Below are positions 3,869 through 14,808 of a stretch of 14,808 nt of DNA, one piece after another. The notes beneath the pieces were generated by a model. That model was not told the DNA's origin and made no database searches. It was given only the letters and a program-made list of their open reading frames with translations. The stretch lies in assembly GCA_044356215.1 (NCBI GenBank), contig JBIKWQ010000078.1, positions 1 through 14,808 on the forward strand, written 5' to 3'. Within the stretch, counting starts at the first letter, position 1. Every line of letters begins with the position of its first letter. The position numbers were made by a program, and so were the translations under genes. Origin of the DNA: Bdellovibrionota bacterium (GTDB lineage: Bacteria > Bdellovibrionota_C > UBA2361 > OMII01).

Positions 3869-4843
3869 TTACTTGGCTTGTGCTGGCACTGTCCCAGTAA
3901 GGCTGTTAAGGAAAGCCACCAGGCTCGTTACCTCATCCTGTGAGAGGTTCTTACCTAGCTGATACTCAGCCATCTTTGACACAGCCTCTTCGAGGGTCTT
4001 TACACTTCCATCGTGGAAGTATGGTCCTGTCTTAGCTACGTTGCGAAGAGATGGAACCTTAAAGAACTTCTTGTCAGCCTCATTCTTCGTAACCTCGAAG
4101 CGACCAAGGTCCTCGGTTGGATATTCTTTCACTAGACCTAGCTTCTGGTAGATCTGCCCGCCCAAGGTGGCTCCCATATGGCAAGCTGTGCATCCAGTCT
4201 GAACGAATAGCTTTCCACCGGCTTTTTCAGCATCGGTTAGAGCCGCGTCATCACCCTTTAAGAAGGCGTCGAATCGCGATGGGGTGATTAGTGTACGCTC
4301 GAATGCCCCGATAGCCTCTCCGATGTTGTGATAGGTTAGGGGATCCTTCTCTCCTGGGAACGCTTCCTTGAAGGCAGCTACTGTCTTGGGATCCTTCTTA
4401 AGTTTAGCGACTACGGCCGCTTCAGATTCCATGCCCATTTCGATTGGGTTTAGAATTGGTCCGAGAGCCTGGGCCTCTACATCCTTAGCGCGACCGTCCC
4501 AGAACTGAGCTACATGAAGAGCCGCGTTAAACGATGATGGTGAGTTGCGGCCACCACGCTTCCCTTCGTGTCCTGGTGATGTCGGCTCATTATCCACACC
4601 AAAGGTGTTTATATTGTGACAGCTATTGCAGGAGAGCTTGTCGTTCTTTGAGAGCCTTGTGTCCATATACAGGCTCTTTCCGAGGGTGACCTTCGCCTGG
4701 GAGGATGGATGCTCCGCTGAAGGGGCAGAATCTGGTAGAGGTTGAAAAGCTCCCTTCCATGAGTTGTCTTCTGCATAGGCGTTTAACCCTAAAAGCAAAA
4801 GTGAGGAGACACAAAGAATAGAAAACGTGGATATCTTTCTCAT
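3869..4843 (-). CDS. Di-heme cytochrome c peroxidase (CcpA/MauG family)
   Basis: Two CxxCH motifs (CNSCH, CTACH), RNSPS, QFWDGRA, NPIEM, FKVPSLRNV, PYFHDGS, signal peptide. ATG 4843 preferred over GTG 4852 by spacing from GGAG. Confidence 0.95.
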   Translation of the reverse strand: MRKISTFSILCVSSLLLLGLNAYAEDNSWKGAFQPLPDSAPSAEHPSSQAKVTLGKSLYMDTRLSKNDKLSCNSCHNINTFGVDNEPTSPGHEGKRGGRNSPSSFNAALHVAQFWDGRAKDVEAQALGPILNPIEMGMESEAAVVAKLKKDPKTVAAFKEAFPGEKDPLTYHNIGEAIGAFERTLITPSRFDAFLKGDDAALTDAEKAGGKLFVQTGCTACHMGATLGGQIYQKLGLVKEYPTEDLGRFEVTKNEADKKFFKVPSLRNVAKTGPYFHDGSVKTLEEAVSKMAEYQLGKNLSQDEVTSLVAFLNSLTGTVPAQAK

Positions 4844-4952
4844 ATTAAGCACTCTCCAAAAAGTTGACGCGCATGTCGCTCCGTACGCTCATTGCGTGTG
4901 TCCGATGGTACTACATAGCGCAGGTAGATATCAAACTATCGGTTTTATCGGG

Positions 4953-5113
4953 AGGGCGCGGCAGTTCTTTTTCAACACAGAGGACGCAGAGGACACAGAG
5001 AATAGGCCATTTTATTGGCAATTATGGAGGTTTCTCTGTGTCCTCTGCGTCCTCTGTGGTAAAAATATTTTGCTATGCACACCTGTAGCTTACCAAACAC
5101 TCAGCAACGTCCT
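4953..5113. mobile_element. MITE-like 161-bp element, copy 1
   Basis: Reverse-complement homolog of 14511-14671. Degenerate terminal IRs AGGGCGCGGC / GCAACGTCCT. Flanking direct repeat TTTTATCGG at 4943-4951 and 5113-5121. Perfect 27-bp internal IR 4976-5002 / 5032-5058. Confidence 0.8.
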
Positions 5114-5127
5114 TTTATCGGACGTGG

Positions 5128-5604
5128 TTAATGCCCAATATTACGATGCCAATAGACCCCAGCGACTTTAAAAGATCCTAATCTAGAACGGCAGTAGTAA
5201 ACTTCCACGCCATCTGTTCGTCGGTTCTTTATCGCGTATCGTCTACAGAAAGGGCCGTTATTGCGGATAAAGGATCTCCCTAGTGATTCAAGCCGCTCCC
5301 GTTTTTTGTGGTCTATAGCAGACAGAGCCGGGTAAGCGCCCTTTAGGGATTCGTGTCGCGTCTTGACCTCAATCATAACTAGGCACTGTCTGTCTATCGC
5401 GATGATATCAATCTCTCCTAGGCGGTCGCGCCAATTAGTAGCAACGGGGATGAGTCCAGCGGCCGTTATCTCCCGAAGCACCGTTCGTTCCCCCCATCTG
5501 CCCACGCGATCTTTATTAGTTTTTCTCCATCTTGTGAAAAACAAGACGGTCAGCCATTTGCGGCCGAGATTTTGAGTTCCTCTTTTCGGTGTAATGGCTG
5601 ACAT
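5128..5604 (-). CDS. yraN: YraN (UPF0102) PD-(D/E)xK nuclease-fold protein
   Basis: GRWGE, NWRDRLGEIDIIA and IEVKTR motifs; usual position downstream of rnhB. Start uncertain (5604 overlaps rnhB by 55 nt). Confidence 0.88.
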   Translation of the reverse strand: MSAITPKRGTQNLGRKWLTVLFFTRWRKTNKDRVGRWGERTVLREITAAGLIPVATNWRDRLGEIDIIAIDRQCLVMIEVKTRHESLKGAYPALSAIDHKKRERLESLGRSFIRNNGPFCRRYAIKNRRTDGVEVYYCRSRLGSFKVAGVYWHRNIGH

Positions 5605-6140
5605 ACTCCAGCGAATGTTTTGCGGTGGATTCTACTCGGCCCAAGGGCAACAAGCGCCGCTCGGTGCGCGGCTGTTGGATACCCGGCGTGTTTTTCAAGT
5701 CCGTAGCCTGGGTAGCGCGCGGCTAATTTATCCATTAAGCGATCGCGCCATACCTTAGCCAATATTGAGGCGGCTGATATCTCTACATGTAATCGATCCC
5801 CTCTGATCACTGTTCTCTGATTGATAGAGGTCAAGATTGGCTGATTCCCATCTACCAATACAAGGTCCGCTGAGATCCTCTCAACCGCTAATCTCATCGC
5901 GAGCTTAGTAGATTGCAGGATATTAATCTGATCGATCCGCCGCGGACCAACCGCAACGATCGACCATGAAAGCGCCGTCTCCTTTATATATTCGAACAGG
6001 AGCTCCCGTTGTTTCGCGGAAAGAGCTTTAGAGTCCTTTATTCTTGGGTCCGAAAAACCCTCTTTGTAGACAACAGCCGCCGCCACCACCGGGCCAGCTA
6101 ATGGTCCACGACCAGCTTCATCCACACCACAGATAAGCAT
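5550..6140 (-). CDS. rnhB: Ribonuclease HII
   Basis: GVDEAGRGPLAGPV, DSK, VDG, ISAASILAKV.RD, HAGYPT, IHRKTF; GGAG upstream. Confidence 0.97.
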   Translation of the reverse strand: MLICGVDEAGRGPLAGPVVAAAVVYKEGFSDPRIKDSKALSAKQRELLFEYIKETALSWSIVAVGPRRIDQINILQSTKLAMRLAVERISADLVLVDGNQPILTSINQRTVIRGDRLHVEISAASILAKVWRDRLMDKLAARYPGYGLEKHAGYPTAAHRAALVALGPSRIHRKTFAGVCQPLHRKEELKISAANG

Positions 6141-6215
6141 AGCTCTCCTAAATAGACGCTCACCATAATCTCTATTAGCGAGCTTTAGCTGGGTGTGATA
6201 TACCAGATAAACGGT

Positions 6216-7088
6216 ATGAAGACGAAGAGAAAAAAAACGACAAATCGTGGTGAGAAGAAGGGAGCTGGCGCGAGCGCCAGACTTGCTAATCGATCTAATC
6301 AGAGGAAAAAAGTAGCGAAGCCCACGGCTCGATCAGATAAAGCGAGCACAGGGCGCGGCGACGTAGCTCGTACCCCTGGCGCGTCTCACTCTAAAGCGGG
6401 ACGCCGTAGTGAATTAAGACGTCATCTCGATGAGCGGCTCAGGCTGTTGCATCACCGAACGATGCTAATCGAAGCGGAGCTTCGCAAATTAGACGAAAAC
6501 CGTTTCTACCGCACCTGCATATTCGGCAGCGCGAGGATTAAAGCTGATACGAAACAATACGCTGAGGTCTTTGAGGTCGCGCGTTATTTGGCGTGGGAGG
6601 GCATTGATGTACTAACGGGTGGCGGCCCTGGTCTGATGGAGGCCGCGAACAAAGGAGCGCGACTTGGCCGTGAGGAGAAGAAAACGCGAAGCTTATCTTA
6701 TGGGTTGTCGATCCAGCTTGAGTTTGAGCCGGAGCCTAATAGACATCTCGATATCAAGCGGCACCACCATAAGTTCTCATCGCGATTAGATGACTTTATG
6801 CGCTTATCCCACTCAGTGATCTGTACACCAGGAGGGATTGGCACGATCTTAGAGCTATTCTTCGTGTGGCAGTTAATCCAGGTGAAGCACGTACCGCCTA
6901 GACCGATCGTACTGATGGATAAAGAGTACTGGAGCGGCTTGCTTGATTGGATGCGGGCGGAGACCTGCGCCCGAGGATTAATGAGTGAGAAGGATTTCTC
7001 CTTTATTCATTTAGTGGACACACCAGAAGAGGCTTTTGAGATCATCTCGGCGCACCACAAGGATTTCAGGTCGAGAGTTGTAACCTAG
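6216..7088 (+). CDS. LOG/YgdH-family nucleotide phosphoribohydrolase with basic N-terminal extension
   Basis: IFGSAR, TGGGPGLMEAANKGA, PGGIGTILE. Start ATG 6216 or GTG 6195. Confidence 0.9.
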   Translation: MKTKRKKTTNRGEKKGAGASARLANRSNQRKKVAKPTARSDKASTGRGDVARTPGASHSKAGRRSELRRHLDERLRLLHHRTMLIEAELRKLDENRFYRTCIFGSARIKADTKQYAEVFEVARYLAWEGIDVLTGGGPGLMEAANKGARLGREEKKTRSLSYGLSIQLEFEPEPNRHLDIKRHHHKFSSRLDDFMRLSHSVICTPGGIGTILELFFVWQLIQVKHVPPRPIVLMDKEYWSGLLDWMRAETCARGLMSEKDFSFIHLVDTPEEAFEIISAHHKDFRSRVVT

Positions 7089-7092
7089 CCGT

Positions 7093-8538
7093 TTATCTCT
7101 GATTCATCGACTCTCTCTCTCGGTTTTCGGCTGATGCCCTGATCGCCTCAAGGAATCTCTGGCGTATCTGCTCACGCTGCGCCTCTTCAGCGCTCATATT
7201 ATCTGAATCTGGTTCAGGCTCCTCCTCGAACCCGTCATCATCTTCATAGCTGTTGTCGTTCGCGTAAGGTAATCTTCCGGTATCCGTATTCGTATTTTTG
7301 CTCTTTGAGTCGCTCGCCGCGGCCAGTAGCGAAAAGAGGTTCCCCGAATCCGTTCTCTTGTTGCTGACGGACGAGGGAGCTTGCGTCTCAGATGGTACAA
7401 ATCCCGTGACTCCACGCGCGGTATCTAAGATTGATGCCTTAATAACCGACGGATATGTATCAAGGACATAAAGGTCTGCCTGGGGCGCCATTGGCTTAAC
7501 ATTCGCCTTGCTCGGAGCCGCTTCAGCGACTGTAATTTTATTGTCTGAGTCTCTCTTGTCTCCAATGTTGGTGTTCTTCTGTTGAGCGGAGCCTGGGTCT
7601 TTCTGTGCGGTAGCCACTATCGCCTTAGGCGGAGCTTGAGGTGTCTGACTGGTATCCATCATCTGATTCACGGCGGTATATAGAGCCCAACCACCAACCG
7701 AGCTCCCTATAAGGGTAAATACAAGCTTAGTCGCTGTAAAAAGCGAGGATCCTTTTGAGGTAACGGTTGATACATCGGCGTTAAGGTCGGAAGGTTTGAT
7801 TCCCCCAGTGATCCCCGCCGCAAGGCCAGCGGCCACACCACCGCGCCGAGTGGAATCCTGATCGCTGACCAATTTACGCCGGATCTCTTCGAGAGCCGCG
7901 TTATCTAAAGGGCCGGCAGAGCCGAATCCAATCGTCTTTTGAGAGGTTTGTCCGACCTCAATTCGAGTTACTGCGTCGTTCTCAATCCAGGCGTCCGGTC
8001 TATAAGAGAGGCTCGGAATGATTATCAGAGCGTCTCGTGACTTAGCGAAGTTGGCTAAGATCTCAGCCACTCGTTCACGCCATTTGCTAGAGATATTTTC
8101 GAAAGGGTCGTTTAACACTAAAACCTTATCGGCATCTACTGACGCAGCTAAAAGTCGTAACCTAGCTTCCTGATCGAGACTTAGCTCGCCGCAGCGTTTG
8201 TCAGCTATCTCTTCAAGACCAATTGATAAAAGCTGAGTGTTGATCGATAGCTCAGAGATTCCGCTTCTTCTTGTGAGAAATTCACGAACTGTTAACCCAA
8301 CTGTCGGAGATGGTTCGCCGAAGCCAATAGAGGTGTGGTCCTCTGATTGATAGGCGGATCCATCTACTAAGATCTCAAGGTTATCCTTAGCGTTTGATCC
8401 GCAGAGCGCTCTTTGATAGGGCCTGAGCTCTCCTGGGGATGACGCCCTGAGCACTGAGATCTTTCCTGCGTGACAGGTGGCGACGTGTAGCAGTTCGCCT
8501 GAGTTAGAATGTAGCCTTAGTTCAACCGTAGCCGGCAT
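7093..8538 (-). CDS. Membrane-anchored protein with a degenerate ABC-ATPase-like N-terminal domain and an acidic low-complexity C-terminus
   Basis: 481-aa ORF with GGGGA upstream. GELSLDQEARLRLL...KVLVLNDPFENIS resembles the ABC signature/Walker B region. Hydrophobic segment LVFTLIGSSVGGWALY; D/E-rich tail. Confidence 0.75.
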   Translation of the reverse strand: MPATVELRLHSNSGELLHVATCHAGKISVLRASSPGELRPYQRALCGSNAKDNLEILVDGSAYQSEDHTSIGFGEPSPTVGLTVREFLTRRSGISELSINTQLLSIGLEEIADKRCGELSLDQEARLRLLAASVDADKVLVLNDPFENISSKWRERVAEILANFAKSRDALIIIPSLSYRPDAWIENDAVTRIEVGQTSQKTIGFGSAGPLDNAALEEIRRKLVSDQDSTRRGGVAAGLAAGITGGIKPSDLNADVSTVTSKGSSLFTATKLVFTLIGSSVGGWALYTAVNQMMDTSQTPQAPPKAIVATAQKDPGSAQQKNTNIGDKRDSDNKITVAEAAPSKANVKPMAPQADLYVLDTYPSVIKASILDTARGVTGFVPSETQAPSSVSNKRTDSGNLFSLLAAASDSKSKNTNTDTGRLPYANDNSYEDDDGFEEEPEPDSDNMSAEEAQREQIRQRFLEAIRASAENRERESMNQR

Positions 8539-8592
8539 CTCGATTCCCCGTTTTTTCTCTTAAGAACCCTTCTTAAGTGTTATCAGTAGTAA

Positions 8593-8620
8593 AGGTCGGT
8601 TTGTTAGCTAAAAAAGTTTA
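8593..8620 (-). promoter_or_regulatory. Possible sigma28/FliA-like promoter for the 7093-8538 gene
   Basis: Minus strand TAAACTTT-N12-ACCGACCT versus consensus TAAAGTTT-N11-GCCGATAA; spacer is one base long and the -10 is partial. Confidence 0.3.
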
Positions 8621-8755
8621 GGAAATCTTTTGATAGGGTTAGGCTAGTAACAGGGTTGCGGGCCTGAAAGCCTTAAGTGCCTGAAATGTATGTTAATTAA
8701 AATAGTGAGCGTTTTGGCTAGTTTGAGCCTGTAAAACGGTGGGTTGTCGGCGGAT

Positions 8756-9856
8756 CTAATGGGACAGAGAGATGCTAGGGAAGAGTGCCAAGCTCGGAAC
8801 ACACTCCAGCCTCTGGAATACTTTGGCTTTCTCAAACGCCTTGATATCTTGAGCTTTTGCGCGCTCTTTTTTTGAGATTCGCGCTATTCCATAAAGCTCC
8901 TTTGAGCACACTAGAGCCTCAATTCCAGCTCTGGTCTTGCGGGGTGGTGTGAGGATCCTCACACCTTCAAGTAATGTCCCCCCTGATTTAAAGATAAATC
9001 CAGAGAACTTGATCCGGTGCTTGTTAAATTCCAAGAGGTCGTCGAGTCGGGCGTTTAATCTTGGTTGGTGCCACTCAATTACACCGTGACACCAATCACT
9101 AGTTGAGGCGCTAAGCATTGGGCACTTATCAGAGCGGAGACAGGGGAATAATGGAACTAAATCTTTGTGTTGTGTAATAATCAGATCTCTTAGTCCCATC
9201 AATCTACGGGTGTGATGTAGTTGTCCTGGCTCTAGAAGGATTAAGTGGCCACCAGGAGCAGTGCTCTTAGCTAATTTCTCAACTGCTTTAAGAGCTAAAT
9301 CATCTGACATCTCAGCTAGAACATTCGCGGCGATAATGAGATCAAATTTCTCATCAGCTCCTAAGTCAGAGATCGTTTCAAGCATTCGCAGATCAACAAG
9401 CGATCCGACACCTTTGAAATTACTTAGCAGTTCTTTGGCTACGTTTCGCATCTCACGTGAGCTCTCAACGCAAGTTAATTTGATAGAGCAATTTAAGCTC
9501 GCCAGCAGGGCTAATCCAGCCGTACCTGGTCCGCAACCGAGATCGAGTACCCGTAGCTCGTTTGAATCAACCTGTATCTGCTTTAGTAGGTGAAGTACTT
9601 TGGCGGCGTTAATCGGTGTGTAGTAGAGAGCGTAGGCTTTCGCTGCTTTTGCCGAGTTGATCGGCGAAGAGAGCTTGGATCCTGATTCGTGTGATACATA
9701 AGCTGAAGAGATCGCTTTTAGCGATTCAACAAACGGTAATAGCTCTTTAGTTCCAATATCGCCCAGAGCAAACTGCTTATTAGCCTCATCTGATAGCAGC
9801 GTTGATACGAGATGCTGCTCGATTAGCTCTAATGAATTTTCTGGGGTAACAGTCAT
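8756..9856 (-). CDS. Rsm22/METTL17-family SAM-dependent methyltransferase
   Basis: AYALYY, VLDLGCGPGT, FDLIIAANVLAE, LILLEPG, PCLRSDKCPM...DWCH, KFSGF, RILTPPRK...LVC. ATG 9856 preferred over TTG 9889. Confidence 0.85.
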   Translation of the reverse strand: MTVTPENSLELIEQHLVSTLLSDEANKQFALGDIGTKELLPFVESLKAISSAYVSHESGSKLSSPINSAKAAKAYALYYTPINAAKVLHLLKQIQVDSNELRVLDLGCGPGTAGLALLASLNCSIKLTCVESSREMRNVAKELLSNFKGVGSLVDLRMLETISDLGADEKFDLIIAANVLAEMSDDLALKAVEKLAKSTAPGGHLILLEPGQLHHTRRLMGLRDLIITQHKDLVPLFPCLRSDKCPMLSASTSDWCHGVIEWHQPRLNARLDDLLEFNKHRIKFSGFIFKSGGTLLEGVRILTPPRKTRAGIEALVCSKELYGIARISKKERAKAQDIKAFEKAKVFQRLECVPSLALFPSISLSH

Positions 9857-9901
9857 TGCGCTCTGATATAAAAATAGACGGAAATCCAACTGTCATAAAC
9901 T

Positions 9902-9931
9902 TAGACAACCCAGACCACGTTAGTATAGACT
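9902..9931 (+). promoter_or_regulatory. Putative sigma70 promoter giving a near-leaderless antitoxin mRNA
   Basis: TAGACA (9902-9907), 18-nt spacer, TAGACT (9926-9931); ATG follows after 7 nt with no SD. YAGAC occurs three times. Confidence 0.35.
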
Positions 9932-9938
9932 GAAATAT

Positions 9939-10178
9939 ATGAAGCCTAAAGTGTACACAATTACAGAGGCTAAAGCGCAACTCTCTGATATCCTTCGTCG
10001 GGTCAAGAGAGGAGAGCGCATCGTTATTGGAGCATATCGCAACCCTGAGGTTGAGCTGCGAATTTATACCCCGAAACCGAAGCGGCGTAAGTTCGGCCAA
10101 CTTCTCGGCAAAATCTGGTTAGCGGACGATTTCATTGAGACTGACTCAACGATCCAGCAGCTCTTTGAGAAATCCTAA
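9939..10178 (+). CDS. Phd/YefM-family type II antitoxin (VapC-associated type), orphan
   Basis: TITEAKAQLSDILRRVKRGERIVI N-terminus; RRKFGQLLGKIWLADDF C-terminus typical of antitoxins paired with PIN toxins. Confidence 0.9.
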   Translation: MKPKVYTITEAKAQLSDILRRVKRGERIVIGAYRNPEVELRIYTPKPKRRKFGQLLGKIWLADDFIETDSTIQQLFEKS

Positions 10179-10294
10179 GGTCGAGTACCTGTTTAATACC
10201 GAATGGCTTCTCCTGAGAGGGGCGTGAAGTGTTGCCCGGAGCCACAGAGACAAGGCTTGCAACCGTAGCCCAGATAGGCGAACCTGATGTTCTA

Positions 10295-11341
10295 ATGCGC
10301 GCCAAAATAATATCACGAGACGAAGCTGCCAAACTGAGCGCTGAATACCGAGCGAGCGGAAAACGCGTAGGCTTCACCAGCGGCGTATTTGATATCCTCC
10401 ACCCCGGTCACGTTGAATACCTAGAAGACTCACGTAGCCGTGTTGATGTTTTGTTTGTTGGCATAAATTCCGACGCCTCTGTTAAGGCCAACAAGGGAGA
10501 ATTGCGGCCGATCTGTTCTGAGCACGAGCGCGCTCTTGTGTTGGCCGGACTCGGCGCGGTTGATCACGTGTTTATCTTTAGTGAGCGCAATAACAACGTG
10601 AATGTTGAGCTGCTTAAACCAACTCTATATTTAAAGGCGGGCGACTACTCGCAAGATAAGCTTTCATCTAAGGCAATTGTTGAGAGTCACGGCGGCAGAG
10701 TTGAGTTAGTTCCGTTTAAAGATGGTCACTCAACAACATCAGTAATCGATCGCATCCAACAAGCTGGGTTGTACGACGCGGGTGAGACTATCAAATACGA
10801 TCCAAGGCCCGCGGTGTTCTTAGATCGCGATGGTACAATTAACGAGCACTCCGAGTACTTAAGCGAGATCGAGAAATTTAAGCCCCTCCCTGGTGCTTTT
10901 GAAGCGATTAAAAAGATCTCTGATATGGGATTTCGAATAATCGTTGTCACCAATCAGCCAGGGATCGGATTGGGATACTTCACGAAAGAGGATTTCTACG
11001 CAGTAACCCGTGAAATGATGAAGCAGGGCTCGGCGCACGGCTGCGCTTTTGATAAGATCTATTTCTGCCCGCATTCAAAAGCTGACAAGTGTCAGTGTCG
11101 CAAGCCATCACGTTGGTTCCTTGATCGAGCGGCGAAGGAGCTAAACATAGATCTCTCTAAGAGCTTTGTAATCGGCGATATGACATCTGATGTTCAGTTG
11201 GGGATTAACGCCGGATGTCGGTCGATTCTTGTTAAGACGGGGCGCGGGGGAGATGACGGGATCTACCAGGTAGAGCCGCATTACGCCGCGACGGATCTGC
11301 AAGATGCGGCCAATTGGATCGCCACTCAGATTGATCGGTAA
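10295..11341 (+). CDS. Bifunctional heptose-1-phosphate nucleotidyltransferase (RfaE domain II/HldC-like) and heptose-1,7-bisphosphate phosphatase (GmhB-like HAD)
   Basis: FTSGVFDILHPGH, GINSDASV, KG..RP, STT; then FLDRDGTIN, TNQPGIG, CPH...CQCRKP, IGDMTSDV. ATG 10295 preferred over GTG 10229. Confidence 0.9.
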   Translation: MRAKIISRDEAAKLSAEYRASGKRVGFTSGVFDILHPGHVEYLEDSRSRVDVLFVGINSDASVKANKGELRPICSEHERALVLAGLGAVDHVFIFSERNNNVNVELLKPTLYLKAGDYSQDKLSSKAIVESHGGRVELVPFKDGHSTTSVIDRIQQAGLYDAGETIKYDPRPAVFLDRDGTINEHSEYLSEIEKFKPLPGAFEAIKKISDMGFRIIVVTNQPGIGLGYFTKEDFYAVTREMMKQGSAHGCAFDKIYFCPHSKADKCQCRKPSRWFLDRAAKELNIDLSKSFVIGDMTSDVQLGINAGCRSILVKTGRGGDDGIYQVEPHYAATDLQDAANWIATQIDR

Positions 11342-11344
11342 TAG

Positions 11345-13252
11345 ATGCCCAAGCTGCTTTCGTTTCTCAGTACCCCCTCAAGGATCGTTCTCGCTGTCAC
11401 CTTAGTTTTATGCGCGCTCTGTATCGGATTTAAGATACATTTCTCTTCAGTAGGGGCGTGGGCCTCATATATGGGGCGTAGCGGCGAGGTGCCAGGATTG
11501 ATCTACGGCGAGCCCAAGCCGATCCGAAGCGATGAGTGGCTGTTAGGAGTGCCTTGGTTGCTCTCTCAGGCACACACGAATCCATCCTGGGCTACGAACA
11601 ATCCTTCTGTTGGGCCTGATACATCAGCACTTTTAGTTGGGCTCCCTACTAGTCACTGGACGGCGTTCTTTCGTCCGGCGCATTGGGGCTTTTACATCTT
11701 TGATGTAGAGCGCGGATTCTCGTGGTTCTGGATGTGGCGCACAGTGATTCTTTTTAGCGCTCTTGTTTTGTTGCTAATAGAGCTAAATAGCGGCTTGATT
11801 ATGGGCGCGCTCGCTGGAGCGATCTGGATCTTCTTCTCAGGCTTTGTCCAGTGGTGGTTAGCTAGCGTCGCTGAGATGTTGGCTTATTGGACCTTAGCGT
11901 GCGTAGCTGTTCGATACATCAGTGTATCCACAAGTTATCGACAACTAATTCTTTGGTCCCTGGCTTTGCTAATTATGTGCGGAGGCTTTGGTTTAAGTCT
12001 CTATCCACCATTTCAGGTGCCTCTAGCGTATTTAGGATTGGCGTTATTACCCTTTTTAACACGGGGACTTTTAAGTTCCAATGGACCACGCCCACTGGCT
12101 CGATTTGCTTCGGTGGCTGTTGTTGTCTCGTTGGCTATGGCCGCCGTTGTCTCATTTCTATTAGACAACAGTGAAGCGGTATCAGCGATGGCGCAGACGG
12201 TTTATCCAGGGAGACGGGTCTCGTTAGGAGGAGATCTATCTTTGTGGCGTTTAGTATCTGGTTTTTTTGAGCGAAACTATACTCAGTATATCTTCCCCCC
12301 TGTAGCTGGAAATATAAGTGAGGCGAGTTCGTTTGTCTTTCTGTGGCCAGTGTCGCTGGTTCTACTACTCTTCATAAAAGATCGTCGCGAGCTCATGCGC
12401 TTTTTACCTATAGCGCTATACCTCGTTTTCTTAACGCTTTGGGGGATGTTCGGTATACCTGAATCCGTCGCTGCTATCTCCGGTTGGTCTTTTGTTCCAA
12501 CCAGTCGCGCGTTAATAGGATGGGGAGTAGGAGGTGTTGTGCTGTGTGTCTTGATGATGCGTCCGCAGCTTGTATTGTCGAAGTTGATCTTAGTTGTCTT
12601 TTTCCTAGTCGCGAGTGCAGGGATCCTTTGGTGTGTGACAGCTTTTCCAGAGAGGTTTCCGGTCGCGATAGCTGAGGCTGAATTGTATTACTCCGCTAGT
12701 TTACTTATCGCGTCAGTAGCGGCGCTGATATTTAGATCTGGTTGGTTACTGGCCCTATCTGTCTTCGCTCTCTGCGCCTGGCCACACTCGCAGGTAAATC
12801 CAATTATGCACGGTTTAGCTGTAATTACAGAAGAGCCGCTAGTTTCGGCAGTGAAACGTTTTGATCCTAATCGCGAGGGCCGCTGGGCCGTATTTGGATC
12901 GGTCGTGCACGCGCAATTAGTAAAGATAACAGGCCGAGACGTTGTAAACGGCTCGCAGTACGTTCCTGACATGAAGGCGTTTACCCGCCTGGACCCAGAG
13001 GGGCGCGCCACAGAGATCTACAATCGCTACGCGCATATCGGTTTCACCATAGCTCCTGAAGGAACAGCGCCAACTTTCAACTTGATAGCGGCTGATACAT
13101 GGGAATTAAAAGTTGATCCATGTCATCCGCGATTTATAGATTTTGGTGTTCGGTATCTTGTATGGGCGAACTATCAGTCGTCCCGTCGGTTTGAGTGCTA
13201 TGAGCGGGTGTTTGTGGGTAAAGATTTCGCGGTCTATAAGGGGCGGTCTTGA
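11345..13252 (+). CDS. Multi-pass membrane protein, putative GT-C-fold glycosyltransferase
   Basis: 635 aa with more than 10 hydrophobic segments, an acidic IRSDEW motif in the loop after TM1, YPPFQ, TVYPGRR and a soluble C-terminal domain. Starts 3 nt after the heptose gene. Function is inference. Confidence 0.65.
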   Translation: MPKLLSFLSTPSRIVLAVTLVLCALCIGFKIHFSSVGAWASYMGRSGEVPGLIYGEPKPIRSDEWLLGVPWLLSQAHTNPSWATNNPSVGPDTSALLVGLPTSHWTAFFRPAHWGFYIFDVERGFSWFWMWRTVILFSALVLLLIELNSGLIMGALAGAIWIFFSGFVQWWLASVAEMLAYWTLACVAVRYISVSTSYRQLILWSLALLIMCGGFGLSLYPPFQVPLAYLGLALLPFLTRGLLSSNGPRPLARFASVAVVVSLAMAAVVSFLLDNSEAVSAMAQTVYPGRRVSLGGDLSLWRLVSGFFERNYTQYIFPPVAGNISEASSFVFLWPVSLVLLLFIKDRRELMRFLPIALYLVFLTLWGMFGIPESVAAISGWSFVPTSRALIGWGVGGVVLCVLMMRPQLVLSKLILVVFFLVASAGILWCVTAFPERFPVAIAEAELYYSASLLIASVAALIFRSGWLLALSVFALCAWPHSQVNPIMHGLAVITEEPLVSAVKRFDPNREGRWAVFGSVVHAQLVKITGRDVVNGSQYVPDMKAFTRLDPEGRATEIYNRYAHIGFTIAPEGTAPTFNLIAADTWELKVDPCHPRFIDFGVRYLVWANYQSSRRFECYERVFVGKDFAVYKGRS

Positions 13253-13424
13253 GGCCATCGCCGAGCGCGGTGACTAAACACTTATTTAAATCATTGGCCA
13301 GTGCCTAGGTTTCGCCGGCGTCTTTATCGTGTTTTCACCGCGACCATCGGGTAACTGCGCCTTTGGCATACTGATAAACGACTCGTTTAAGCTAAATCCT
13401 CTCTCTTCTAGAGCCTGGGAGCTC

Positions 13425-13934
13425 CTACTTAGGTTCGCATCTCTTCAGTGCATCCTCTATTCTCTGCATTCTCGGCGAATTGGCTGGTAGCTGTTGGTGG
13501 GCAGCATCGGCCAATGTATTGGCAAGTATAGAGAAGCTAAGGGCAAGATACTCGTTTGCCGAGAAATCGGGGACCTCTTTTTTTATACAAGCGACCGTCG
13601 CATTCATATGGGCTTCGGCATCTGTTTTAGCGACGCCCATCTCCAATGAGCATTTTTGGAGAAGAAGACTCATTTTCTGCGTTTGCCACGTAGGAGAGTT
13701 GGCGAGCGCCTTCATGCACAAAGAAACACGACTTAGTTCTTCGGGTGAAAGCGCTGGCATAGGGGGAGACAACGATTCTATCGCCGCTCTTTGCTCGCTT
13801 TCAGAGAGTCGTTGATATTCGCTCATTGGCATGTCAAAATTTTTTTTGGTAGTAGCTCTGTCAGCTCTGGCGACAGTGGAGTCAATCGAAAAAACCAAGA
13901 CGAGAACCCAGCAGATGCGTGATTTTCTGAACAT
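13425..13934 (-). CDS. Secreted hypothetical protein
   Basis: GGAG upstream of ATG, signal peptide ending ARA, four Cys in the mature region. Confidence 0.75.
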   Translation of the reverse strand: MFRKSRICWVLVLVFSIDSTVARADRATTKKNFDMPMSEYQRLSESEQRAAIESLSPPMPALSPEELSRVSLCMKALANSPTWQTQKMSLLLQKCSLEMGVAKTDAEAHMNATVACIKKEVPDFSANEYLALSFSILANTLADAAHQQLPANSPRMQRIEDALKRCEPK

Positions 13935-14042
13935 ACTCGCTCCATTTGATGTAGGTCCTTAACTGCTTATCCTGTAGAAATCTGCAATCGCTACTTGCCG
14001 ATCATTCTACCGCCGCTGGGGAGGGTGGTACAGCGTTAATTT

Positions 14043-14351
14043 TCAACCTGATACCTGCTGATTCATGGGACTTAAAAGCTGACCCCTGCCATCCGCGATT
14101 CAGCCGCGTCACATCAAATTGCGCTAAATCCTAGCGAGGTGGGTCGCGAACGAGTGGCGAAAGGTGTGGCAAGTTATGCGTTTCGATAGACCTGCCTCTC
14201 CCATCTGCACCGGGTGGCGTTTGCCATGAGAGCGTACAAACCGGCGGATCAAATTCAGATAATGTCTCTCTGTCTTCTAGCTTCAGTGGCGCAGACGAAT
14301 CACTTCACGTACGACCTCAAGCAGCATTTTTGGTTGGGTGTGTTCTTGCAT
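14043..14351 (-). pseudogene. intI: Internally deleted integron integrase (IntI-like tyrosine recombinase) remnant
   Basis: Manual translation from ATG 14351: [73 protein letters not shown]. Shifted frames then give DVTRLNRGWQG and SPMNQQVSG*. Confidence 0.88.
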
Positions 14352-14421
14352 GTAGGATAGATCGAAAAGTCTCCGAATGAGTTGCGTGCTCAGGAAACGC
14401 CTTTACCGCAGCATGAGATCC

Positions 14422-14473
14422 TAGATGGGCAGATCTGGCCATCTACCCAAAATCGCTAGATGGACCAGGTCTG
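14422..14473. repeat. Palindrome/inverted-repeat cluster with three alternating TAGATGG motifs
   Basis: TAGATGG (14422-14428), CCATCTA (14439-14445), TAGATGG (14457-14463); 14422-14445 is a near-perfect 24-bp palindrome. Confidence 0.7.
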
Positions 14474-14510
14474 GATTGATGCTGTAAAAATCGGAAATAA
14501 TTGAGGTTAC

Positions 14511-14671
14511 AGGGCGTCGCAGTGTTTTTGGTAAGCTGCTGGGATAATTAGTAAAATATTTTTTACCACAGAGGACGCAGAGGACACAGAGAAAGCTCAA
14601 TAATTGCCCATAAAATGGCCGTTCTCTGTGTCCTCTGCGTCCTCTGTGGTGATAAAGAACTGCGATGCCCT
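14511..14671. mobile_element. MITE-like 161-bp element, copy 2 (inverted relative to copy 1)
   Basis: Terminal IRs AGGGCGTCGCAGT / ACTGCGATGCCCT (12/13 match). Flanking direct repeat ATTGAGGTTA at 14500-14509 and 14672-14681. Perfect 29-bp internal IR 14565-14593 / 14622-14650. Confidence 0.85.
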
Positions 14672-14792
14672 ATTGAGGTTATAGGGCTTCGCAGCCCCAC
14701 CCCCAACCGCCTAGAATAGCGATACTTTTATAAACACTTGCCCTTAGTGAGAAAATAAAATAGGCTCGACCATGCGAAGGAGCGCAAAGTCT

Positions 14793-14808
14793 ATGAGCAC
14801 GATAGATA
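14793..14808 (+). CDS. Possible start of a gene truncated by the window end (MSTID...)
   Basis: AAGGAG at 14777-14782 upstream of ATG 14793; in-frame ATG at 14772. Too short to verify. Confidence 0.3.

Follow-up and report, generated by a model that had tools for sequence, protein, structure and literature searches.

In the genome of an uncultured lake bacterium, a short repeat with a large internal hairpin occupies the spacer between yraN and ccp, and a second copy lies close to the end of the same contig. We asked whether this repeat is a mobile element, what would move it, and how its hairpin relates to sequences elsewhere. The window, by which we mean the whole 14,808-nt stretch of DNA analysed, is contig C74 of a 3.24-Mb genome (G000; 131 contigs, 49.5% G+C).

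A dispersed family of 163-bp elements

The two copies lie on opposite strands and are 85% alike. As an earlier note on this DNA had described, positions 4953-5113 align end to end with the reverse complement of 14511-14671, with 85.2% identity over 162 columns (query positions 1-161). Alignment of the wider family placed the boundaries of copy 1 at 4952-5112 (plus strand; 161 bp, the right end being two bases short) and those of copy 2 at 14510-14672 (minus strand; 163 bp). Copy 1 is 85.8% identical to the family consensus, whereas copy 2 is young, with 97.5% identity to the consensus and 99% to a copy at C53:56532-56692. The earlier note had given the element a length of 161 bp, which is true of copy 1 itself, whereas the family element measures 163 bp in an alignment of 72 copies. 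The flanking direct repeat reported for copy 1, TTTTATCGG, is as stated and occupies 4943-4951 and 5113-5121. At copy 2, however, the repeat is the 9-mer TTGAGGTTA (14501-14509 and 14673-14681) and not the 10-mer ATTGAGGTTA.

The giant internal hairpin that had been reported was borne out in both copies, with arms of 34-35 nt that are 94% complementary and a loop of 28-29 nt. In copy 1 the arms span 4969-5002 and 5032-5065 around a 29-nt loop, each being composed of three 9-nt units of the CACAGAGGA type; in copy 2 they lie at 14559-14593 and 14622-14656 around a 28-nt loop. The MITE consensus has a perfect inner stem of 29 bp. Predicted folding energies were -75.3 kcal/mol for copy 1 as RNA (z -9.4) and -47.9 kcal/mol for copy 2 as DNA (z -12.2), and none of 200 shuffled sequences was as stable in either case. 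The sole open reading frame spanning copy 1 (4827-5171, 114 aa) had no Pfam match.

Whole-genome BLASTN with both copies as queries (E<=1e-5) returned 161 dispersed loci, confirming the high copy number that had been suspected from the two copies in the window. Ninety-one of these loci are at least 140 bp long and 40 touch a contig end, so that the repeat is one reason for the broken assembly. We aligned the 72 full copies, defined as those of at least 155 bp that lie away from contig ends with 40 nt of flanking sequence. Conservation, above 90% at the borders of TAGGGCGTCGCAG...CTGCGACGCCCTR (TAGGGCG...CGCCCTR), falls to background immediately beyond them. These sharp, consistent ends substantiate the terminal inverted repeats proposed from the window alone. 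The base preceding this core is T in 60 of the 72 copies and the base following it is G in 41 and A in 23 (G or A in 64 of 72); with this extra base at each end counted as part of the element, its length becomes 163 bp and the duplication 9 bp. The ends of the MITE are 13-bp inverted repeats, YAGGGCGTCGCAG, and the consensus terminal repeats AGGGCGTCGCAG and CTGCGACGCCCT are perfect over 12 nt, plus a terminal Y/R base. Read inwards, the right end is CAGGG in 41/72 copies and TAGGG in 23/72.

Flanking target duplications, another feature that the earlier note had claimed, proved to be the rule in this family. In fixed register, the 9-bp repeats are perfect in 35 of the 72 full copies and match at eight of nine positions in a further 11. 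The resulting 46 copies with a match at 8/9 or better compare with a mean of 0.75 and a maximum of 5 when the flanks were re-paired at random (200 shuffles). A clear duplication is missing in the other 26 copies, some having shifted ends and some no duplication. No base preference stood out inside the 9-mer target duplications of the 72 copies.

The median identity of the 72 copies to the consensus is 95.35%. At or above 95% are 42 copies, between 90 and 95% are 20 and below 90% are 10; the family is recently active. The approximately 160 loci are mostly intergenic. When each full copy together with one 9-mer was removed by script and the restored site was searched for open frames, no frame of at least 150 codons ran across it in 51 of 72 cases; the corresponding figure for random positions was 60 of 500. 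Of the 35 genomes of the genus that were compared, only the present one yielded the full MITE, and in seven others the hairpin arm alone was matched. A relic in another species of the genus (G050), consisting of 73 nt of the 5'-truncated right half of the MITE with 88% similarity (L099:1490-1580; G050:C100:1854-1926), indicates that the family is older than the burst in the present genome. We also observed a 42-bp mini-element at G000:C94:37537-37580 (L005:138-181), which is made up of two MITE ends alone (about 20 nt each) without a flanking duplication.

Presence and absence of copy 1 in related strains

The window is present in lake-water metagenome runs, and contigs from four of these (X2-X5) were compared with it over 4300-14808. 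In X2 and X3 the contigs match the window without any difference and reach into the element from either flank (4300-4990, and 5042 onwards), whereas the organism in X4 and X5 differs from the window at about 1% of positions. Looking for an empty site in this sister strain, we found that contigs in X4 and X5 join position 4942 directly to 5113. The joint skips 170 letters, which correspond to the element plus one copy of its duplication, and the nine letters of the duplication fit either side of it. Support for the joint consists of one contig per run, and its shorter side is only 30 letters long. Because loss by slippage between the 9-bp repeats would leave the same joint, the comparison establishes presence and absence of copy 1 and not the direction of the change.

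Copy 1 is diverged in sequence, yet it is absent from the sister strain. Its divergence therefore probably goes back to a source copy that had already diverged, and not to great age at this site. At copy 2, the X4 and X5 contigs stop matching the window at 14509 and continue with 705 letters unlike it. Other species of the genus lack the element; their flanking genes are 64-77% alike and the spacer is unalignable, so no precise empty site was obtained from them.

The comparison also revealed differences away from the element, namely 9 or 18 extra letters (AGCTCTGTC units) behind position 13853 and 166 letters missing at 14133-14298 in the X4 and X5 contigs. Elsewhere in the window, approximately 120 nt from the 3' end of a DUF7657 gene (13012-13134) are repeated 965 nt downstream at 13976-14100 with 79-82% similarity. 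Positions 1-330 hold the 3' end of a 23S rRNA gene (327 bits) and 530-640 a complete 5S rRNA gene (91 bits), and owing to the latter the open frame listed at 600-1886 cannot start at 600.

The partner insertion sequence

The earlier note had proposed that the element is non-autonomous and mobilised in trans. Searching for the 12-nt terminal motif outside the MITE copies, we found both ends of a larger, transposase-bearing repeat. Its left end, TAGGGCTTCGCAGCCCCACCCCC..., occurs in the window at 14682-14808 (plus strand) and at four other contig ends, five in all, and its right end, ...AAAAAAAGAACTGCGACGCCCTA, occurs at seven places. The window copy begins with TAGGGCTTCGCAG, contains the first orfA codons and is cut by the contig end after 127 nt. 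The left end TAGGGCTTCGCAG agrees with the MITE ends at 12 of 13 positions; the right end is identical to the MITE left end over 19 nt (TAGGGCGTCGCAGTTCTTT), and the MITE right end resembles it as well. All of these insertion sequence (IS) ends lie 118-269 nt from a contig end, and the assembly, in which no contig is shorter than 2534 bp, lacks the interior of the IS. For four of the five left ends, a right end bordered by the same 9-mer was identified; among these, the left end at window position 14682 pairs with C130:269 via TTGAGGTTA, the matching right end being at C130:1-269. In addition, two variant left ends (C32 and C105) pair, by eye, with C129 and C107. This pairing indicates that the IS, too, duplicates 9 bp.

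The contigs break about 125 nt inside the IS, so the presence of an intact transposase in this genome is deduced from its ends, from an N-terminal fragment of 177 aa on C32 that matches Pfam DruA/DUF4338, and from a 99% identical protein of 412 aa from other samples (P0001). The latter adds a DDE_Tnp_1_assoc domain and scores 84.5 bits against the NCBIfam model NF033564 'ISAs1 family transposase' (cut-off 70; model positions 2-160 of 314). At the other side of the gap, C130:3-62 encodes the last 20 residues of orfB. Thirty-five metagenome loci provided relatives of the IS, 11 of which were tabulated for their frames. In loci L120-L143, orfA has approximately 411-443 codons and carries the DUF4338/DruA N-terminal domain. 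A second frame of approximately 190-245 codons overlaps the end of the first in 10 of the 11 loci, and in the remaining one (L121) the contig ends within the second frame. In L120, where the frame was worked out, orfB is in the -1 frame relative to orfA. The orfB products of the relatives match NF033564 positions 152-314 at 106-119 bits, above the cut-off of 70, and the overlap between the two frames holds a run of ten A (L120:1150-1300). The arrangement of the frames suggests that orfA and orfB are probably expressed through a -1 frameshift or transcriptional slippage at this A-run.

The 19 loci in which both ends are present describe an element of approximately 1.9-2.2 kb with TAGGGCGTC... 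or CAGGGCGTC... ends; one relative (L133, L134) starts with CAGGGC. Flanking 9-bp duplications are present in four of these loci (L133, L134, L138 and L143) and not in the other 15, which may reflect metagenome contigs stitched at repeats. DUF4338 was also observed fused to DDE_5-type transposases of 717-725 aa (P0115-P0119).

Members of the ISAs1 family have a single transposase frame within 1.2-1.6 kb and make target duplications of 8-10 bp. Judged by its predicted proteins and ends, the partner IS is an ISAs1-family element of approximately 2.08 kb that belongs to an atypical branch. It resembles ISAs1 members such as ISAs1 of Aeromonas salmonicida in that both halves of its transposase exceed the NF033564 cut-off and in its DDE_Tnp_1_assoc domain. 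Its YAGGGC ends are also like those of ISArsp11 of Arthrobacter, which are given as CAGGGCTGATGC... in a published table (PMC6305408 Table 3). In the portions of the two reports available to us, ISAs1 elements have 14-22-bp terminal repeats starting with CAGGG (PMC11946415) and 10-bp target duplications (PMC11946415; PMC6305408 Table 3), whereas the partner IS has 13-bp repeats starting with TAGGGC and, like the MITE, a 9-bp duplication. It is longer than the 1.3-1.6 kb of the ISAs1 members listed in the literature examined, and it differs from them by an extra N-terminal DUF4338/DruA domain of approximately 220 aa and by the split of its transposase into two frames that overlap at the A10 run. 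In the literature searched, we found no description of a branch of ISAs1 elements that combines an N-terminal DUF4338 domain with a transposase split into two frames.

Where elements lie side by side, their spacing points to a preference in target choice. Seven pairs of outward-facing element ends are less than 40 bp apart, and in five of these the distance is exactly 9 bp, two of the five being a MITE and an IS. Close pairs lie at window 14501-14808 together with G000:C130:1-290, and at C2:30284-30537, C17:80111, C28:5620-5990 and C98:41504. In the window, the order is TTGAGGTTA-MITE-TTGAGGTTA-IS, so that the 9-mer at 14673-14681 serves both as the right duplication of copy 2 and as the left duplication of the IS, and a third TTGAGGTTA follows behind the IS in C130. 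At the C2 site, the IS is 9 bp from a MITE end and the same 9-mer recurs on its far side. On C28, two sister MITE copies, identical except at one base, are interspersed with three TCCGGTTTG copies; here slippage between the 9-mers, leading to duplication of the unit, is the better explanation. The MITE-IS abutments, by contrast, require that an insertion took place a second time within the same 9 bp, and this suggests that insertion is aimed at the 9 bp flanking the end of a resident element.

A transposase-bearing IS that shares both the terminal repeat and the 9-bp length of the duplication with the MITE is present in the same genome, which supports mobilisation in trans. Very probably, the MITE is moved by the DDE transposase of this approximately 2.08-kb ISAs1-family IS. 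In the model that we propose, an OrfA-OrfB fusion transposase would be made by a -1 shift at the A10 run, bind the shared ends of the MITE copies, cut them and insert them at a 9-bp staggered cut, the repair of which would give rise to the target duplication. Since both MITE ends are like the right end of the IS, the MITE probably arose from an IS remnant, which then would have gained the hairpin module. Hairpin arms were found neither in the 35 loci of IS relatives (92 kb) nor in the assembled IS ends.

The inner hairpin and competing explanations

The arm of the inner hairpin has a far wider distribution than the MITE. The matches listed in species-representative genomes include more than 86 stretches, from at least ten phyla, that contain the 24-mer ACAGAGGACGCAGAGGACACAGAG without mismatch. 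Record titles among these matches include Bacteroidota, Cyanobacteriota, Acidobacteriota, Chloroflexota, Planctomycetota and Verrucomicrobiota, as well as Pseudomonadota, Gemmatimonadota, Desulfobacterota, one Actinomycetota metagenome-assembled genome (MAG) and one Methanosarcinales archaeon; a 211-nt low-coverage Bittarella contig with the 24-mer was not counted. The bare arm is also present in four viral contigs (L161-L164), and the left junction of the MITE was found in no viral contig. At 45 of 80 arm loci, a partner arm with at most 7 mismatches in 24 positions lies within the 300-nt flank, enclosing a loop of 13-375 nt, and in loci L012-L091 the hairpins are often nested within hairpins of other repeat units. 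A PDDEXK_3 nuclease gene starts right behind the arm in one of the 80 loci (L064). A link between the hairpin and small nuclease cassettes in the present genome was considered and rejected, as G000 has no PF13366 or PF05635 gene.

Rfam searches with the window and eight hairpin loci returned no bacterial family and only sub-threshold plant and animal microRNA precursors, as is the case for any long hairpin. From the composition of its arms, the inner hairpin is assigned to a poorly understood class of hairpins with tandem-repeat arms. The closest description that we found in print, in the portion of the genome report available to us, is that of paired sites in Geobacter metallireducens, the Class 2 'predicted global regulator binding sites', which were proposed there as putative sites for a regulator or for IHF/HU (Aklujkar et al. 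2009, PMC2700814). As given there, these sites share with the MITE arms the three tandem 8-9-nt units (TCTCCGTS[Y] versus TCCTCTGYG in the complementary arm of the MITE) and the pairing on opposite strands at a variable distance. They are free-standing, however, whereas the arm pair of the MITE lies inside a transposon and is carried along by it. Stand-alone hairpins built of a variant unit (CACAAAGGA) with a loop of approximately 60 nt were observed outside the MITEs at G000:C47:5774-5899, C47:8101-8228 and C110:30150-30180.

The same arm is found in a multi-copy MITE of approximately 274 bp in three Chloroflexota genomes, which by eye has CAGGGCAATCGCTTCAAA ends and a flush 10-bp duplication (L022, L025, L030, L033, L056 and L057; L047 is a further locus, and the hosts are Phototrophicaceae and Aggregatilineales MAGs). 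This MITE, too, has ISAs1-type ends, and a T-rich stretch at its left end is followed, after a few bases, by the same 24-nt arm. The MITE differs from the present family in its terminal repeat, its loop of approximately 150 nt and its diverged partner arm of CTCGGTG units. A search for its parent IS with P0001 was empty in two of the genomes (G051 and G052) and returned weak ISAs1-like frames of 386 aa without matching ends in the third (G053).

A distribution of this kind could mean that the whole element is a tandem-repeat-arm hairpin (REP-like, or a 'regulator site') that spreads by a process other than transposition and without target duplication, its YAGGG ends being incidental. The exact arm in more than 86 loci of many phyla among the matches listed, the partner arm 13-375 nt away in 45/80 loci and the comparable paired sites of three tandem repeats in the available portion of the G. 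metallireducens report (PMC2700814) would all agree with this. In the present genome, however, 179 of 182 matches to a loose three-unit arm pattern lie inside MITE copies and the other three in MITE fragments. The repeating unit is the complete 163-bp element, which has sharp YAGGG ends and 9-bp duplications and of which the inner module alone belongs to the hairpin class. This complete unit plus one 9-mer is also what is missing at the empty site; we therefore regard such a spread as highly improbable. A different driver of transposition might also be considered. IS4/IS10-type, IS903-type and IS1-type elements make 9-bp duplications. If one of these moved the MITE, the ISAs1-type end would be shared by chance or convergence, and the difference between 9 bp and the 10 bp published for ISAs1 members, in the portions of the sources available, speaks for this (PMC11946415; PMC6305408 Table 3). 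Against it stand the 19 consecutive bases common to the IS right end and the MITE left end, the 12/13 agreement of the IS left end, the 9-bp duplications of the IS itself at four of five testable left ends, and the two IS copies that lie exactly 9 bp from a MITE end, which together make such a driver very unlikely.

The copies might instead be retained for a function of the hairpin in the host, for example as a terminator, an RNA-processing site or a protein-binding site, with copy 1 uncoupling yraN from ccp. Copy 1 lies between yraN/UPF0102 (5128-5604, minus strand; PF02021, 55.7 bits), with its right duplication 7 nt after the stop codon, and ccp, which encodes a di-haem cytochrome c peroxidase (3869-4852, minus strand; PF03150, 191 bits) and starts 100 nt beyond the copy; the copy is antisense to both genes. 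A very stable 29-bp stem and the enrichment of copies between genes would suit a host function, although such enrichment is expected of any MITE under purifying selection against gene hits. We found no terminator-like site in 4700-5300 and no T-run behind the stem on either strand, so classical termination is not expected, and the sole promoter-like site in this interval is not part of the element but occurs between it and ccp. The two copies in the window are on opposite strands, copy 1 is absent in the sister strain, and the element is absent in other species of the genus. Retention for a host function thus appears extremely improbable, and copy 1 is most likely neutral at yraN-ccp. If transcribed, its 29-bp stem is a possible candidate target of a double-strand RNase.

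The evidence as a whole fits a MITE mobilised by the ISAs1-family IS. The element is 163 bp long, well below the approximately 600 bp up to which MITEs extend, and non-coding, has terminal inverted repeats and a 9-bp duplication, occurs in dispersed copies, has an empty site and shares its ends with an IS. Nezha of cyanobacteria and the Correia elements of Neisseria are bacterial MITEs with like traits. MaeMITEa-h of Microcystis (PMC2779907) likewise are small, non-coding, self-folding elements with many, mostly intergenic copies, terminal inverted repeats and target duplications. The present MITE differs from other bacterial MITEs in its probable ISAs1-type origin and in an inner hairpin that was not seen in the parent IS and is common to unrelated phyla. 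We found no ISAs1-derived MITE in the portion of the literature on ISAs1 and MITEs that was available. The family is a real and ordinary kind of mobile DNA.

A more far-reaching possibility, which we put forward tentatively and consider rather unlikely, is that the MITE is a chimera of ISAs1-type ends and a captured pan-phylum hairpin whose pairing is not accidental, moved by a transposase that targets the 9 bp beside a resident end. The occurrence of an identical arm beside the left end of the unrelated Chloroflexota MITE with ISAs1-type ends would then mean that the module prefers the T-rich stretch at that position or aids transposition. Such help could consist in folding the two ends together or in recruiting a host factor and, if real, would explain the burst to approximately 160 copies.

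Collectively, our analysis shows that this MITE marks strain differences. The position of the parent IS next to a MITE copy, with three occurrences of one 9-mer, suggests that insertion is directed to resident ends, and the inner hairpin ties a lineage-specific transposon to a class of hairpins that is spread over many phyla.
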